Origin: a virus
Lineage: Duplodnaviria; Heunggongvirae; Uroviricota; Caudoviricetes
Virus record (IMG/VR): IMGVR_UViG_2531839200_000005
Reading direction: 5' to 3' (one strand)
Length of the DNA: 8,546 nt
The translations under genes were made by a program, and so were the position numbers. Shown here in pieces: positions 1-8,546 of this stretch. Position 1 is the stretch's first letter, and each line of letters begins with the position of its first letter. The notes under the pieces are model-generated. The model did not search any database, was not told the origin of the DNA, and saw only the letters and a list, made by a program, of their open reading frames with translations.

Positions 1-283
1 CAACAGGGAGTACTGGCGACTCGTATGACAACGCGATGGCTGAGAGCATCAATGGTCTTTACAAAGCGGAGGTAATACACCGTAAGAGCTGGAAAAACCG
101 GACAGAAGTGGAACTGGCCACACTAACGTGGGTGGACTGGTATAACAATCGACGATTGCTGGAAAGGCTGGGCCATATTCCTCCGGCAGAAGCAGAAAAA
201 GCTTATTATGCTTCCATCGGAAATAATGATCTGGCAGCCTGAGTTCACAGATAAAATACTCTCCAGGAAACCCGGGGCGGTTC
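1..283 (+). mobile_element. Right (3') end of an IS3-family insertion sequence (IS629/IS3411-like), left part outside the window
   Basis: The sequence ends ...TCTCCAGGAAACCCGGGGCGGTTCA at 283, with the family-typical terminal 5'-CA-3'. Its reverse complement, TGAACCGCCCCGGG..., resembles the terminal inverted repeat I recall for IS629-group elements. The encoded protein fragment is a typical IS3-family transposase C-terminus. Lambda-like right-arm sequence resumes at about 284. The exact IS identity is from memory and not verified. Confidence 0.75.
3..242 (+). CDS. IS3-family DDE transposase (OrfB), C-terminal fragment; 5' end truncated by window edge
   Basis: Reading frame 3 from position 3 gives TGSTGDSYDNAMAESINGLYKAEVIHRKSWKNRTEVELATLTWVDWYNNRRLLERLGHIPPAEAEKAYY..., stop TGA at 240-242. 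The DSYDNA motif carries the catalytic glutamate of retroviral-integrase-like DDE transposases. The ORF track lists only the part from the internal Met at 36. Confidence 0.8.
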   Translation, partial: TGSTGDSYDNAMAESINGLYKAEVIHRKSWKNRTEVELATLTWVDWYNNRRLLERLGHIPPAEAEKAYYASIGNNDLAA

Positions 284-440
284 AATTCAGTGTCGCTGAT
301 TTGTATTGTCTGAAGTTGTTTTTACGTTAAGTTGATGCAGATCAATTAATACGATACCTGCGTCATAATTAATTATTTGACGTGGTTTGATGGCGTAGAT
401 GCACGTTGTGACATGTAGATGATAATTATTATCATTTTGC

Positions 441-447
441 GGGTCCT
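441..447 (+). other. cosQ-like element (approximate position)
   Basis: GGGTCCT lies about 24-30 bp upstream of the cohesive-end sequence, matching my recollection of where cosQ sits near the lambda right end. Exact boundaries are uncertain. Confidence 0.4.
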
Positions 448-470
448 TTCCGGCGATCCGACAGGTTACG

Positions 471-482
471 GGGCGGCGACCT
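471..482 (+). other. cosN: 12-nt cohesive-end sequence GGGCGGCGACCT (terminase nicking site)
   Basis: Exact match to the lambda 12-nt cohesive end. It is preceded by ...GATCCGACAGGTTACG (lambda right-end sequence) and followed by CTCGCGGGTTTTCGCTATTTATGAAAATTTTCCGG (lambda left-end sequence). Confidence 0.9.
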
Positions 483-522
483 CGCGGGTTTTCGCTATTT
501 ATGAAAATTTTCCGGTTTAAGG

Positions 523-638
523 CGTTTCCGTTCTTCTTCGCCGTAACCTAATGTTTTTATTTAAAACACCCCCTGAAAAGAAAGGAAACGACAGGTGCTG
601 AAAACGGGCTTTTTGGCCTCTGTCGTTTCCTTTCTCTG
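523..638 (+). other. cosB: terminase small-subunit binding region (R3, AT-rich IHF-type segment, R2, R1)
   Basis: R3-like CGTTTCCGTTCTTCTTCG is at 523-540 (+). An AT-rich segment at 541-579 is in the position of the lambda IHF site I1. R2-like GAAAGGAAACGACAG is at 580-594 (inverted orientation). R1-like TGTCGTTTCCTTTCTCTG is at 621-638 (+). All lie between cosN and the nu1 start, as in lambda. Confidence 0.75.
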
Positions 639-659
639 TTTTTGTCCGTGGAATGAACA

Positions 660-1179
660 ATGGAAGTCAACAAAAAGCAGCTGGCTGACATTTTCGGTGC
701 GAGTATCCGTACCATTCAGAACTGGCAGGAACAGGGAATGCCCGTTCTGCGAGGCGGTGGCAAGGGTAATGAGGTGCTTTATGACTCTGCCGCCGTCATA
801 AAATGGTATGCCGAAAGGGATGCTGAAATTGAGAACGAAAAGCTGCGCCGGGAAGTTGAAGAACTGCGGCAGGCCAGCGAGACAGATCTCCAGCCAGGGA
901 CTATTGAGTACGAACGCCATCGACTTACGCGTGCGCAGGCCGACGCACAGGAGCTGAAAAATGCCAGAGACTCCGCTGAAGTGGTGGAAACCGCATTCTG
1001 TACTTTCGTGCTGTCGCGGATCGCAGGTGAAATTGCCAGTATTCTCGACGGGATCCCCCTGTCGGTGCAGCGGCGTTTTCCGGAACTGGAAAACCGACAT
1101 GTTGATTTCCTGAAACGGGATATCATCAAAGCCATGAACAAAGCAGCCGCGCTGGATGAACTGATACCGGGGTTGCTGA

Positions 1180-1205
<26 letters not shown>
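660..1205 (+). CDS. nu1: Terminase small subunit (gpNu1)
   Basis: 181-aa ORF, MEVNKKQLADIFGASIRTIQNWQEQGMPVLRGGGKGNEVLYD..., which I recognise as lambda Nu1. The N-terminal winged helix-turn-helix region is the cosB-binding domain. Same length and position relative to cos as in lambda. Confidence 0.95.
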
Positions 1206-4886
<3,681 letters not shown>

Positions 4887-4906
<20 letters not shown>

Positions 4907-6206
4907 TCTCCCGCATATTGCCAGCATGGCTTTTAATGAGCCGCTGATGCTTGAACCCGCCTATGCGCGGGTTTTCTTTTGTGCGCTTGCAGGCCAGCTT
5001 GGGATCAGCCGCCTGACGGATGCAGTATCCGGCGACAGCCTGACTGCCGGAGAGGCACCCGCGGCGCTGGCGTTATCCGGTGATGATGACGGACCACGAC
5101 AGGCCCGGAGTTATCAGGTCATGAACGGCATCGCCGTGCTGCCGGTGTCCGGTACGCTGGTCAGCCGGACGCGGGCGCTGCAGCCGTATTCGGGGATGAC
5201 CGGTTACAACGGCATTATCGCCCGTCTGCAACAGGCTGCCAGCGACCCGATGGTGGACGGCATTCTGCTCGATATGGACACACCGGGCGGAATGGTGGCG
5301 GGAGCATTTGACTGTGCTGACATCATCGCCCGTGTGCGTGACATAAAACCGGTATGGGCGCTGGCCAACGACATGAACTGCAGTGCAGGTCAGCTGCTTG
5401 CCAGCGCCGCCTCCCGGCGTCTGGTCACGCAGACCGCCCGGACAGGCTCCATCGGCGTCATGATGGCTCACAGTAATTACGGTGCTGCCCTGGAGAAACA
5501 GGGCGTGGAAATCACGCTGATTTACAGCGGCAGCCATAAGGTGGATGGCAACCCCTACAGCCATCTACCGGGTGATGTCCGGGAAACACTGCAGTCCCGG
5601 ATGGATGCAACCCGCCGGATGTTTGCGCAGAAGGTGTCGGCATATACCGGCCTGTCCGTGCAGGCTGTGCTGGATACCGAGGCTGCAGTGTACAGCGGTC
5701 AGGAGGCCATTGATGCCGGACTGGCTGATGAACTTGTCAACAGCACCGATGCGATCACCGTTATGCGTGATGCACTGGATGCACGTAAATCCCGTCTCTC
5801 AGGAGGGCGAATGACCAAAGAGACTCAATCAACAACTGTTTCAGCCACTGCTTCGCAGGCTGACGTTACTGGCGTGGTGCCAGCGATGGAGGGCGAAAAC
5901 GCCAGCGCGGCGCAGCCGGACGTGAACGCGCAGATCACCGCTGCGGTTGCGGCAGAAAACAGCCGCATTATGGGGATCCTCAACTGTGAGGAGGCTCACG
6001 GACGCGAAGAACAGGCCCGCGTGCTGGCAGAAACCCCCGGTATGACCGTGGAAACGGCCCGCCGCATTCTGGCCGCAGCACCACAGAGTGCACAGGCGCG
6101 CAGTGATACTGCGCTGGATCGTCTGATGCAGGGGGCACCGGCACCGCTGGCTGCAGGTAACCCGGCATCTGATGCCGTTAACGATTTGCTGAACACACCA
6201 GTGTAA
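4887..6206 (+). CDS. C: Head maturation protease / scaffold fusion gpC (S49 ClpP/SppA-like serine protease N-terminal domain)
   Basis: GTG at 4887 lies just downstream of a GAGGAGGAG Shine-Dalgarno run (4875-4883) and gives MTAELRNLPHIASMAFNEPLMLEPAYARVFF..., 439 aa as in lambda C. The ORF-track start at 4752 is an in-frame upstream Met inside B and is probably not used. Overlaps the B 3' end by 20 nt. Confidence 0.9.
5601..6206 (+). CDS. nu3: Scaffolding protein gpNu3, translated from an in-frame internal start within C
   Basis: ATG at 5601 is 714 nt into the C frame, the same offset as lambda nu3 within C. It encodes MDATRRMFAQKVSAYTGLSVQ... (201 aa) and shares the C stop codon. Confidence 0.8.
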   Translation: MDATRRMFAQKVSAYTGLSVQAVLDTEAAVYSGQEAIDAGLADELVNSTDAITVMRDALDARKSRLSGGRMTKETQSTTVSATASQADVTGVVPAMEGENASAAQPDVNAQITAAVAAENSRIMGILNCEEAHGREEQARVLAETPGMTVETARRILAAAPQSAQARSDTALDRLMQGAPAPLAAGNPASDAVNDLLNTPV

Positions 6207-6210
6207 GGGA
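6205..6210 (+). promoter_or_regulatory. Shine-Dalgarno for D
   Basis: AAGGGA sits 5 nt upstream of ATG 6216. Confidence 0.5.
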
Positions 6211-6215
6211 TGTTT

Positions 6216-6548
6216 ATGACGAGCAAAGAAACCTTTACCCATTACCAGCCGCTGGGCAACAGTGACCCGGCTCATACCGCAACCGCGCCCGGCGGATTGA
6301 GTGCGAAAGCGTCTGCAATGACCCCGCTGATGCTGGACACCGCCACCCGTAAGCTGGTTGCGTGGGATGGCACCACCGACGGTGCTGCCGTTGGCATTCT
6401 TGCGGTTGCTGCTGACCAGACCAGCACCACGCTGACGTTCTACAAGTCCGGCACGTTCCGTTATGAGGATGTGCTCTGGCCGGAGGCTGCCAGCGACGAG
6501 ACGAAAAAACGGACCGTGTTTGCCGGAACGGCAATCAGCATCGTTTAA
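6216..6548 (+). CDS. D: Head decoration protein gpD
   Basis: 110-aa ORF from ATG 6216, [27 protein letters not shown]...AISIV. An AAGGGA Shine-Dalgarno at 6205-6210 favours ATG 6216 over the upstream in-frame ATG 6210. Confidence 0.93.
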
Positions 6549-6565
6549 CCTTACCCTTCATCACT

Positions 6566-6590
6566 AAAGGCCGCCTGTGCGGCTTTTTTT
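6566..6590 (+). terminator. Intrinsic-terminator-like hairpin with U-tract in the D-E intergenic region
   Basis: AAAGGCCGC-CTGT-GCGGCTTTTTTT: 5 G:C pairs extendable by A:U pairs, a 4-nt loop, then 7 T (6584-6590) and a second T7 run at 6597-6603 immediately before the E start codon. Confidence 0.5.
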
Positions 6591-6603
6591 ACGGGATTTT
6601 TTT

Positions 6604-7629
6604 ATGTCGATGTACACAACCGCCCAGCTGCTGGCGGCAAATGAGCAGAAATTTAAGTTTGATCCGCTGTTTCTGCGTCTCTTTTTCCGTGAGAGCTATC
6701 CCTTCACCACGGAGAAAGTCTATCTCTCACAAATTCCGGGACTGGTAAACATGGCGCTGTACGTTTCGCCGATTGTTTCCGGTGAGGTTATCCGTTCCCG
6801 TGGCGGCTCCACCTCTGAATTTACGCCGGGATATGTCAAGCCGAAGCATGAGGTGAATCCGCAGATGACCCTGCGTCGCCTGCCGGATGAAGATCCGCAG
6901 AATCTGGCGGACCCGGCTTACCGCCGCCGTCGCATCATCATGCAGAACATGCGTGACGAAGAGCTGGCCATTGCCCAGGTCGAAGAGATGCAGGCAGTTT
7001 CTGCCGTGCTTAAGGGCAAATACACCATGACCGGTGAAGCCTTTGATCCGGTTGAGGTGGATATGGGCCGCAGTGCGGCAAACAACATCACACAGTCCGG
7101 TGGCACGGAGTGGAGCAAGCGTGACAAGTCCACGTATGACCCGACCGACGATATCGAAGCCTACGCGCTGAACGCCAGCGGCGTGGTGAATATCATCGTG
7201 TTTGATCCGAAAGGCTGGGCGCTGTTCCGTTCCTTCAAAGCCGTCAGGGATAAGCTGGATACCCGTCGCGGCTCTCATTCCGAGCTGGAGACAGCGGTAA
7301 AAGACCTGGGCAAAGCGGTGTCTTATAAGGGAATGTATGGCGATGTGGCCATCGTCGTGTATTCCGGACAGTACGTGGAAAACGGCGTCAAAAAGAACTT
7401 CCTGCCGGACAACACGATGGTGCTGGGGAACACTCAGGCACGCGGTCTGCGTACCTATGGCTGTATTCAGGATGCGGACGCACAGCGCGAAGGCATTAAC
7501 GCCTCTGCCCGTTACCCGAAAAACTGGGTGACTACCGGCGATCCGGCGCGAGAGTTCACCATGATTCAGTCAGCACCGCTGATGCTGCTGGCTGACCCTG
7601 ATGAGTTCGTGTCTGTACAACTGGCGTAA
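6604..7629 (+). CDS. E: Major capsid protein gpE (HK97-fold)
   Basis: 341-aa ORF from ATG 6604, MSMYTTAQLLAANEQKFKFDPLFLRLFFRESYPFTTEKVYLSQIPGLVNMALYVSPIVSGE.... The ORF-track start at 6577 lies inside the upstream hairpin and is rejected. Confidence 0.95.
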   Translation: MSMYTTAQLLAANEQKFKFDPLFLRLFFRESYPFTTEKVYLSQIPGLVNMALYVSPIVSGEVIRSRGGSTSEFTPGYVKPKHEVNPQMTLRRLPDEDPQNLADPAYRRRRIIMQNMRDEELAIAQVEEMQAVSAVLKGKYTMTGEAFDPVEVDMGRSAANNITQSGGTEWSKRDKSTYDPTDDIEAYALNASGVVNIIVFDPKGWALFRSFKAVRDKLDTRRGSHSELETAVKDLGKAVSYKGMYGDVAIVVYSGQYVENGVKKNFLPDNTMVLGNTQARGLRTYGCIQDADAQREGINASARYPKNWVTTGDPAREFTMIQSAPLMLLADPDEFVSVQLA

Positions 7630-7631
7630 TC

Positions 7632-7649
7632 ATGGCCCTTCGGGGCCAT
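7632..7649 (+). other. Stem-loop with UUCG tetraloop in the E-FI intergenic region (possible attenuator or mRNA stability element)
   Basis: ATGGCCC-TTCG-GGGCCAT: perfect 7-bp stem, UUCG loop, starting 3 nt after the E stop codon and followed by the U-rich TGTTTCTCTGT. Confidence 0.4.
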
Positions 7650-7670
7650 TGTTTCTCTGTGGATGAGTCC

Positions 7671-8069
7671 ATGACGAAAGATGAACTGATTGCCCGTCTC
7701 CGCTCGCTGGGTGAACAACTGAACCGTGATGTCAGCCTGACGGGGACGAAAGAAGAACTGGCGCTCCGTGTGGCAGAGCTGGAAGAGGAGCTTGATGACA
7801 CGGATGAAACTGCCGGTCAGGACACCCCTCTCAGCCGGGAAAATGTGCTGACCGGACATGAAAATGAGGTGGGATCAGCGCAGCCGGATACCGTGATTCT
7901 GGATACGTCTGAACTGGTCACGGTCGTGGCACTGGTGAAGCTGCATACTGATGCACTTCACGTCACGCGGGATGAACCTGTGGCATTTGTGCTGCCGGGA
8001 ACGGCGTTTCGTGTCTCTGCCGGTGTGGCAGCCGAAATGACAGAGCGCGGCCTGGCCAGAATGCAATAA
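7671..8069 (+). CDS. FI: gpFI (DNA-packaging accessory / head assembly protein)
   Basis: 132-aa ORF from ATG 7671, MTKDELIARLRSLGEQLNRDVSLTGTKEELALRVAELEEELDDTDE.... The ORF-track start at 7632 would begin inside the E-FI hairpin. Size matches lambda FI. Confidence 0.9.
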   Translation: MTKDELIARLRSLGEQLNRDVSLTGTKEELALRVAELEEELDDTDETAGQDTPLSRENVLTGHENEVGSAQPDTVILDTSELVTVVALVKLHTDALHVTRDEPVAFVLPGTAFRVSAGVAAEMTERGLARMQ

Positions 8070-8080
8070 CGGGAGGCGCT

Positions 8081-8434
8081 GTGGCTGATTTCGATAACCT
8101 GTTCGATGCTGCCATTGCCCGCGCCGATGAAACGATACGCGGGTACATGGGAACGTCAGCCACCATGACATCCGGTGAGCAGTCCGGCGCAGTAATACGT
8201 GGTGTTTTTGATGACCCTGAAAATATCAGCTATGCCGGACAGGGCGTGCGCGTTGAAGGCTCCAGCCCGTCCCTGTTTGTCCGGACTGATGATGTGCGGC
8301 AACTGCGGCGTGGAGACACGCTGACCATCGGTGAGGAAAACTTCTGGATAGACCGGATTTCGCCGGATGATGGCGGAAGCTGTCATCTCTGGCTTGGGCG
8401 TGGCGTGCCGCCTGCCGTTAACCGTCGCCGCTGA
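8081..8434 (+). CDS. FII: Head-tail connector protein gpFII
   Basis: 117-aa ORF with GTG start at 8081, preceded by GGGAGG (8071-8076). MADFDNLFDAAIARADETIRGYMGTSATMTSGEQ... I recognise as lambda FII. Confidence 0.92.
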   Translation: MADFDNLFDAAIARADETIRGYMGTSATMTSGEQSGAVIRGVFDDPENISYAGQGVRVEGSSPSLFVRTDDVRQLRRGDTLTIGEENFWIDRISPDDGGSCHLWLGRGVPPAVNRRR

Positions 8435-8445
8435 AAGGGGGATGT

Positions 8446-8546
8446 ATGGCCATACAGGGTCTTGAGCAGGCCGTTGAAAACCTCAGCCGTATCAGCAAAA
8501 CGGCGGTGCCCGGTGCGTCAGCAATGGCCATTAACCGCGTTGCTTC
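8446..8546 (+). CDS. Z: Tail assembly protein gpZ, N-terminal fragment (3' end beyond window)
   Basis: ATG at 8446, preceded by AAAGGGGGA (8435-8443), gives MAIQGLEQAVENLSRISKTAVPGASAMAINRVA, matching the lambda Z N-terminus. It is absent from the ORF track because no stop falls within the window. Confidence 0.85.
   Translation, partial: MAIQGLEQAVENLSRISKTAVPGASAMAINRVA

Follow-up and report, generated by a model that had tools for sequence, protein, structure and literature searches.

A complete cos site of predicted lambda specificity where the virion ends of a lambdoid prophage are joined

An exact copy of the lambda cohesive end is present in a viral DNA stretch of 8,546 nucleotides (IMG/VR record IMGVR_UViG_2531839200_000005; the whole stretch that was analyzed, hereafter the window). 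The question raised by this locus is whether the short sequence belongs to a complete packaging site, which terminase specificity such a site would have, and whether the site would serve a prophage that is still able to package its own DNA. Comparative analysis indicates, with high confidence, that positions 441-635 represent a complete lambda-specificity cos, situated where the two virion ends of a lambdoid prophage are joined and followed directly by intact terminase and head genes of the lambda type, the prophage being one of Escherichia coli or of a close relative. The site is a standard lambda cos of a known and frequent kind, and its spacer allele is a natural one that also occurs in deposited phage genomes. 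The subsites were delimited according to the definitions of Feiss and co-workers (PMC4669245, PMC4856287, PMC9026076).

The non-coding stretch 286-659 (374 bases) corresponds to the right and left ends of lambda joined to each other, with 16 substitutions and one 1-bp difference relative to NC_001416. Segment 286-470 corresponds to lambda 48318-48502 in a gap-free alignment that shows 10 substitutions, the part left of cosQ (286-440) being non-coding DNA homologous to the lambda right end at 48318-48472, and segment 471-700 pairs with lambda 1-231, from which it differs by 6 substitutions and a single 1-bp gap; no indels are present across 286-605. In the comparison with lambda and DE3 records, 286-700 (415 bases) is 95.9% identical (E = 0), and the similarity to lambda extends over the full length of 286-8546, at 97.7% identity. 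The first-pass annotation had described the cohesive end as flanked by lambda right-end and left-end DNA and the genome ends as joined in the manner of a prophage or concatemer; both descriptions hold, the lambda right and left ends meeting at 470/471.

To the left of the lambda homology, positions 1-285 (plus strand) are the 3' end of an IS3-family (IS629/IS1203-like) element, with the Pfam domains rve_3 and rve_2 and with best matches annotated as 'IS3-like element IS1203 family transposase'. The window begins inside this element; the transposase C-terminus occupies 3-242 on the plus strand (stop codon at 240-242), and the terminal inverted repeat ends ...GGCGGTTCA at 285, with lambda homology starting at 286. 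The element abuts the lambda-equivalent base 48318, 185 bp left of the predicted nick; in relatives, the leftward ylcI/ynfO gene has its start codon about 15 bp short of this point. Because of this element, the DNA is interpreted as chromosomal or prophage DNA and not as virion DNA. The IS/cos junction at 285/286 occurs in no complete E. coli genome; the corresponding 46-mer and 23-mer were not found in GTDB representative genomes, nor the 23-mer in IMG/VR, so the junction is regarded as strain-specific. An IS at this place was also found in none of the 10 other genomes with an exact gpA. The same IS end, in the same orientation, was observed at other points just upstream of cos, including the equivalent of 386 in the chicken strain Z1323CEC0013, a place upstream of ylcI in strain M15, and a different right-end module in the IMG/VR locus L011 (recorded occurrences of the IS end in relatives: L008 2284, L003 2784 and L011 99). 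The recurrence of this end near cos is consistent either with a permissive insertion zone or with nested IS-adjacent deletions.

The cohesive-end 12-mer GGGCGGCGACCT, placed at 471-482 by the first-pass annotation, is a single-copy sequence in the window, found there on the plus strand by exact search and in 0 of 200 dinucleotide-preserving shuffles; a search tolerating up to two mismatches is uninformative, about 1.2 matches being expected by chance. The homologous place in phage DE3 carries the label 'cos site'. The signal cosQ, a 7-bp element with a role in packaging termination (PMC4669245), has the sequence GGGTCCT at 441-447 on the plus strand, equal to lambda 48473-48479; it starts 30 bp left of the top-strand nick, and the alignment from cosQ to cosN is free of indels relative to lambda, so that the conserved distance is kept. 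The partly symmetric nicking site cosN, of about 22 bp (PMC4856287), spans approximately 466-487 and is identical to that of lambda. No differences from lambda are present across 455-540, and the nicks are predicted at 470/471 on the top strand and at 482/483 on the bottom strand. In lambda a weak R-like sequence, R4, lies between cosQ and cosN; the R-element search of the window, with up to three mismatches allowed, found no match in this interval.

Right of cosN, the components of cosB follow one another as in lambda. The segment I2 at 488-520 (lambda 18-50), with limits and a role as a statically bent segment between cosN and cosB described previously (PMC4856287), is identical to lambda. 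The critical Nu1 (TerS) binding site R3 lies at 520-535 on the plus strand (lambda 50-65) and is equal to that of lambda, including the contact bases 55-63 and the critical bases 56, 58 and 59 (PMC9026076). The distance from cosN to R3, where a 3-bp deletion is already severe (PMC9026076), is unchanged, lambda bases 1-70 being matched identically and without gaps. The remaining two elements share a 16-bp sequence, with R2 inverted (PMC4669245, PMC4856287, PMC9026076): R2 occupies 579-594 on the minus strand, and R1, an accessory Nu1 binding site, occupies 620-635 on the plus strand (lambda 151-166 in NC_001416 numbering), both identical to lambda. A search of the window for GTCGTTTCCTTTCT with up to three mismatches recovered these elements at 521-534 (plus strand, two mismatches), 579-592 (minus strand, exact) and 622-635 (plus strand, exact), together with a distant three-mismatch match at 8003; four matches were observed against 0.64 expected, a number reached in 0 of 200 shuffles. 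The repeat search recovered the same geometry, with R3 and R1 as a direct repeat and with R3/R2 and R2/R1 as inverted repeats. The plus/minus/plus arrangement of R3, R2 and R1 claimed in the first reading is confirmed, and the order R3-I1-R2-R1, the inversion of R2 and the spacing are those of lambda. As a separate observation, the R2/R1 inverted repeat reaches 26-nt arms (579-604 and 610-635) that are 85% complementary and 5 nt apart, and a small GC stem inside it, GGGCTTTTTGGCCT (606-619), was marked as terminator-like; lambda shows this arrangement as well.

The segment I1 (lambda 65-90; PMC4856287) corresponds to 535-560, inside the R3-R2 spacer 536-578, and is predicted to contain an IHF site and an intrinsic bend. 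The AT-rich character of the DNA between the R elements, noted in the first reading, is reproduced: the R3-R2 spacer has 63% A+T and I2 has 72%, against 44% in the whole window. IHF-consensus-like cores are present at 544-556 and 549-561, both on the minus strand, in a scan that gave 38 matches over the window against 44 expected and is thus no better than chance. The I1 substitutions relative to lambda, at 541, 543 and 548, fall at none of the specified positions of either core, and the same alleles occur in deposited phage genomes; IHF binding at I1 is putative.

The distribution of the differences from lambda separates subsites from spacers. There are zero differences in cosQ, cosN, I2, R3, R2 and R1, and all differences are located in spacers: left of cosQ at 427, 435 and 439, between cosQ and cosN at 454, between R3 and R2 at 541, 543, 548, 567 and 572, and between R2 and R1 at 604 and at the 1-bp difference. 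In lambda numbering, within 48446-182, these are ten substitutions at 48459, 48467, 48471, 48486, 71, 73, 78, 97, 102 and 134, and one G fewer at 137/138. At window 604-607 (lambda 134-138), in the R2-R1 spacer, NC_001416 has an extra G (GCGAGGC). The length found in the window at 137/138 is common to DE3, the Qin prophage of K-12, phage Perceval, Stx1a phages, prophages of Shiga toxin-producing E. coli (STEC) and every relative inspected, and a resequenced lambda record matches it over the R2-R1 spacer span; the extra G is therefore a peculiarity of NC_001416 and not of the window. Coordinates to the right are consequently shifted by one, with Nu1 beginning at base 190 of the left end in the window and at base 191 in NC_001416. 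Alignment to lambda cos, which the first-pass annotation had suggested as a check, thus gives identity in all six subsites, and its placement of a complete cosQ, cosN and cosB within 430-650 is upheld, all parts lying inside this interval in lambda order and spacing.

The genes downstream agree with the site. The terminase small subunit Nu1 (181 aa) is encoded at 660-1205 on the plus strand, starts 189 bp past the first cohesive-end base as in lambda, and has 179 of 181 residues identical to lambda (Pfam Phage_Nu1, E = 3.9e-101). Its residues 1-74 are unchanged relative to lambda and cover the recognition helix (17-24, including E24) and the wing (31-39, including K35), as these are defined in PMC9026076, and the DNA-binding domain is thus the same as that of lambda. 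The large subunit A (gpA, 641 aa), at 1180-3105 on the plus strand, has 635 of 641 residues identical to lambda in a gap-free alignment and contains the Pfam domains GpA_ATPase and GpA_nuclease. For W, B, C, D, E, FI and FII, a constant offset of 285 converts the annotated lambda gene ends into the ends of the open reading frames; within the window, these seven genes, like Nu1 and A, have the lengths and stop positions of their lambda counterparts. Since the window matches lambda exactly in the R elements and in Nu1 residues 1-74 and gpA is 99% identical, the packaging specificity is predicted to be that of lambda, and the corresponding claim of the first reading stands at the sequence level.

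The mechanism of cos is established for lambda and is applied here from the near-identity of the two sites. R1 would play an accessory part in terminase binding, and gpA would be anchored on cosN and would cut the top strand at 470/471 and the bottom strand at 482/483 to yield 12-nt 5' cohesive ends. Terminase would then hold the cosB end (Complex I), helped by the bend in I2, and portal docking and rightward DNA translocation would follow. At the next cos, cosQ (441-447) and cosN would together direct the terminating cut. At the locus described here, the binding of proteins, the cuts and a role in a living phage are inferred from this likeness.

The module is very common in nature: among 5,426 complete E. 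coli genomes, approximately 3,040 contain 80% or more of 286-8546, and the closest copies (99.5%) are found in prophages of O26, O103 and other STEC and in Stx1a-converting phages. Variation was surveyed in 70 IMG/VR loci with at least 99% identical Nu1 and in register with the window, which represent 43 haplotypes. Among these haplotypes, variable sites per base amount to 0.06 in R1 and R2, 0.12 in R3 and I2, and 0.26-0.72 in the spacers. The only polymorphisms in R3 are at 523 and 524 (lambda 53 and 54), just outside the contact bases, and the six substitutions that distinguish the window from lambda right of cosN are all at segregating sites. Of 65 relatives whose Nu1 is at least 99% identical, 12 (20-25 of 64 in another count) lose homology right at the left edge of cosQ, which suggests that this terminase can do without any sequence left of 441. 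Separately, different cohesive ends were observed at the equivalent of 471-482: GGGCGGAAGGCG in the IMG/VR loci L012, L042, L047, L053, L076 and L088, GGGCGGCGACCG in L077 and GGGCGACGACCT in L085. These loci encode Nu1 proteins at least 99% identical (most of them 100%) and have the same cosB as the window; in the GGGCGGAAGGCG variant the right half only (bases 7-12) is changed, and its six loci also have unrelated right-end modules. Genomes with identical gpA include L093, where head genes are deleted and W is directly followed by Z, and L099, where the major capsid gene is split into three open reading frames, and many copies of the module thus reside in decaying or defective prophages; in AP027185, two module copies are present in one genome.

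Relative to lambda cos (NC_001416, 48473-48502 joined to 1-166), cosQ, cosN, I2, R3, R2 and R1 have the same sequence, order, orientation and spacing, whereas the site in the window is internal to a prophage and has the IS element 185 bp to its left. Prophages of non-O157 STEC, such as UTAK-15, O26 RM8426 and O103 RM8385, and the Stx1a-converting phages LC645428-37 are 99.5-99.8% identical; the IS junction at 285/286 is missing from all of them. Over 414-659, no base separates E. coli UTAK-15 from the window, and this stretch spans the equivalent of the 238-bp lambda fragment 48446-182 that has been used as a complete cos (PMC4856287). In the linear record of Escherichia phage Perceval (OV696612), the sequence starts at GGGCGGCGACCT and continues with the same cosB allele (one of 182 bases differs over 471-652), and the right end contains cosQ and finishes ...ACAGGTTACG; the right-end module left of cosQ is different, and the terminase large-subunit gene is annotated differently (start at 899). 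That this record begins at the homologous base lends indirect support to the predicted staggered nicking.

The alternative that survives best concerns the use of the site and not its identity, and it is compatible with a lambda-specificity cos. According to this alternative, which deserves serious consideration though it is on balance unlikely, the intact cos is a relic in a defective or cryptic prophage whose own DNA is never packaged, similar to cos-nohA of the K-12 prophage Qin, and the site could be used only if a co-resident or infecting phage of lambda specificity supplied the missing functions. The Qin locus (L101, NC_000913.3 about 1636327-1636759) is 96% identical to the window over 286-700, including cosQ, cosN, the R elements and the Fur-box palindrome discussed below, with a G-to-A change in R3 at the equivalent of 524 (lambda 54), and it shows that a complete cos of this kind can be retained upstream of a stranded nohA. 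The IS3-family element, which separates the lysis/ylcI region from cos and lies 185 bp from cosN on its left side, points in the same direction, as do the deleted or fragmented head genes in identical-gpA relatives (L093 and L099) and the common occurrence of several module copies per genome (median 2, up to 8 places). Against a relic stand the nine genes from Nu1 to FII with lambda lengths and stops, whereas in Qin nohA directly precedes the tail-fibre gene stfQ and the terminase large subunit and head genes are missing. The IS is also located outside the 238-bp complete-cos fragment (lambda 48446-182, window 414-651), its junction being 129 bp away from it, and at least one deposited phage genome, PhiR70_1, has a transposase inside this module.

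A specificity other than that of lambda, of the phage 21 or N15 type, in spite of the shared cohesive end would mean that lambda terminase would not use the site; we consider it very improbable. Such a possibility arises because cosQ and cosN are common to lambda, 21 and other relatives, so that the 12-mer alone does not define specificity (PMC4669245), and because in some O157:H7 prophages homology to the window ends near 515, before R3. The determinants that distinguish lambda from 21 are R3 bases 56 and 59 and TerS residues 20 and 24 (PMC4669245); here R3, R2 and R1 are base-for-base those of lambda, and so are the recognition helix and wing of Nu1. A 21-type cosB was ruled out from the R elements and Nu1 residues 1-74, the 21 determinants being taken from their description (PMC4669245). 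The simple cosB of N15 has a single R3 without I1, R2 or R1, a TerS start near bp 89 and an rR2 inside terS (PMC9026076), and it was ruled out by the three R elements and by the Nu1 start at left-end base 190, which is 189 bp past the first cohesive-end base and not at bp 89. The chance that this is the cos of a phage-inducible chromosomal island hijacking a helper terminase through Rpp is negligible, since the cos sites of such islands, in spite of nearly identical cosQ and cosN with the same spacing, are devoid of R repeats and of I1 and have rpp as the next gene (PMC9026076), whereas in the window Nu1, A and the full head gene set come after three R elements of lambda, and gene content and R repeats together refute a cos-rpp module.

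The lambda-specificity cos is thus the reading retained, no feature of the sequence speaking against it, and it is bordered on the left by an element that is not a defined cos subsite. The Fur-box core TGATAATTATTATCA, a perfect palindrome at 420-434, lies 6 bases left of cosQ and overlaps the left edge of the 430-650 interval; its counterpart in lambda is TGATAATCATTATCA at 48452-48466. The center of the palindrome is 233 bp upstream of the Nu1 start, and a strong Fur site confirmed by gel shift has been reported 233 bp upstream of nohA in K-12 Qin by Chen et al. 2007 (PMC2189734); the palindrome of the window is homologous to this nohA site, the Qin region being 96% identical there. Among 65 relatives the palindrome is exact in 44, present with 1-3 mismatches in 9 and absent from 12, and it is kept in several right-end modules that are otherwise unrelated. 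In the Stx1a phages LC645428-LC645437, the sequence corresponds to 420-8546 at 99.3-99.5% and is unrelated left of about 420, which therefore places a mosaic breakpoint at the left edge of the Fur-box/cosQ block. A rightward sigma-70-like promoter is predicted at 408-435 on the plus strand (10 of 12 matches), with a -10 hexamer overlapped by the palindrome. These features allow the proposal, improbable in our estimation, that the palindrome is a working iron switch on cos, through which Fur would repress a Q-independent promoter reading across cos into Nu1-A. Were it true, iron starvation would lead to terminase expression from a resident, even defective, prophage, or to altered events at cosQ; no link of the Fur site to packaging was found in the literature.

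Beyond annotation, the importance of the site is small, and only the adjacent Fur box raises a further question. For annotation, the locus marks the predicted start and end of the virion DNA of this prophage at the nick 470/471, and it indicates that the IS insertion spared the packaging site. The near-identity to lambda predicts that the prophage DNA could be packaged by, and could exchange with, any phage of lambda specificity in the same cell, which bears on mobilization between the numerous lambdoid and Stx prophages found in pathogenic E. coli.
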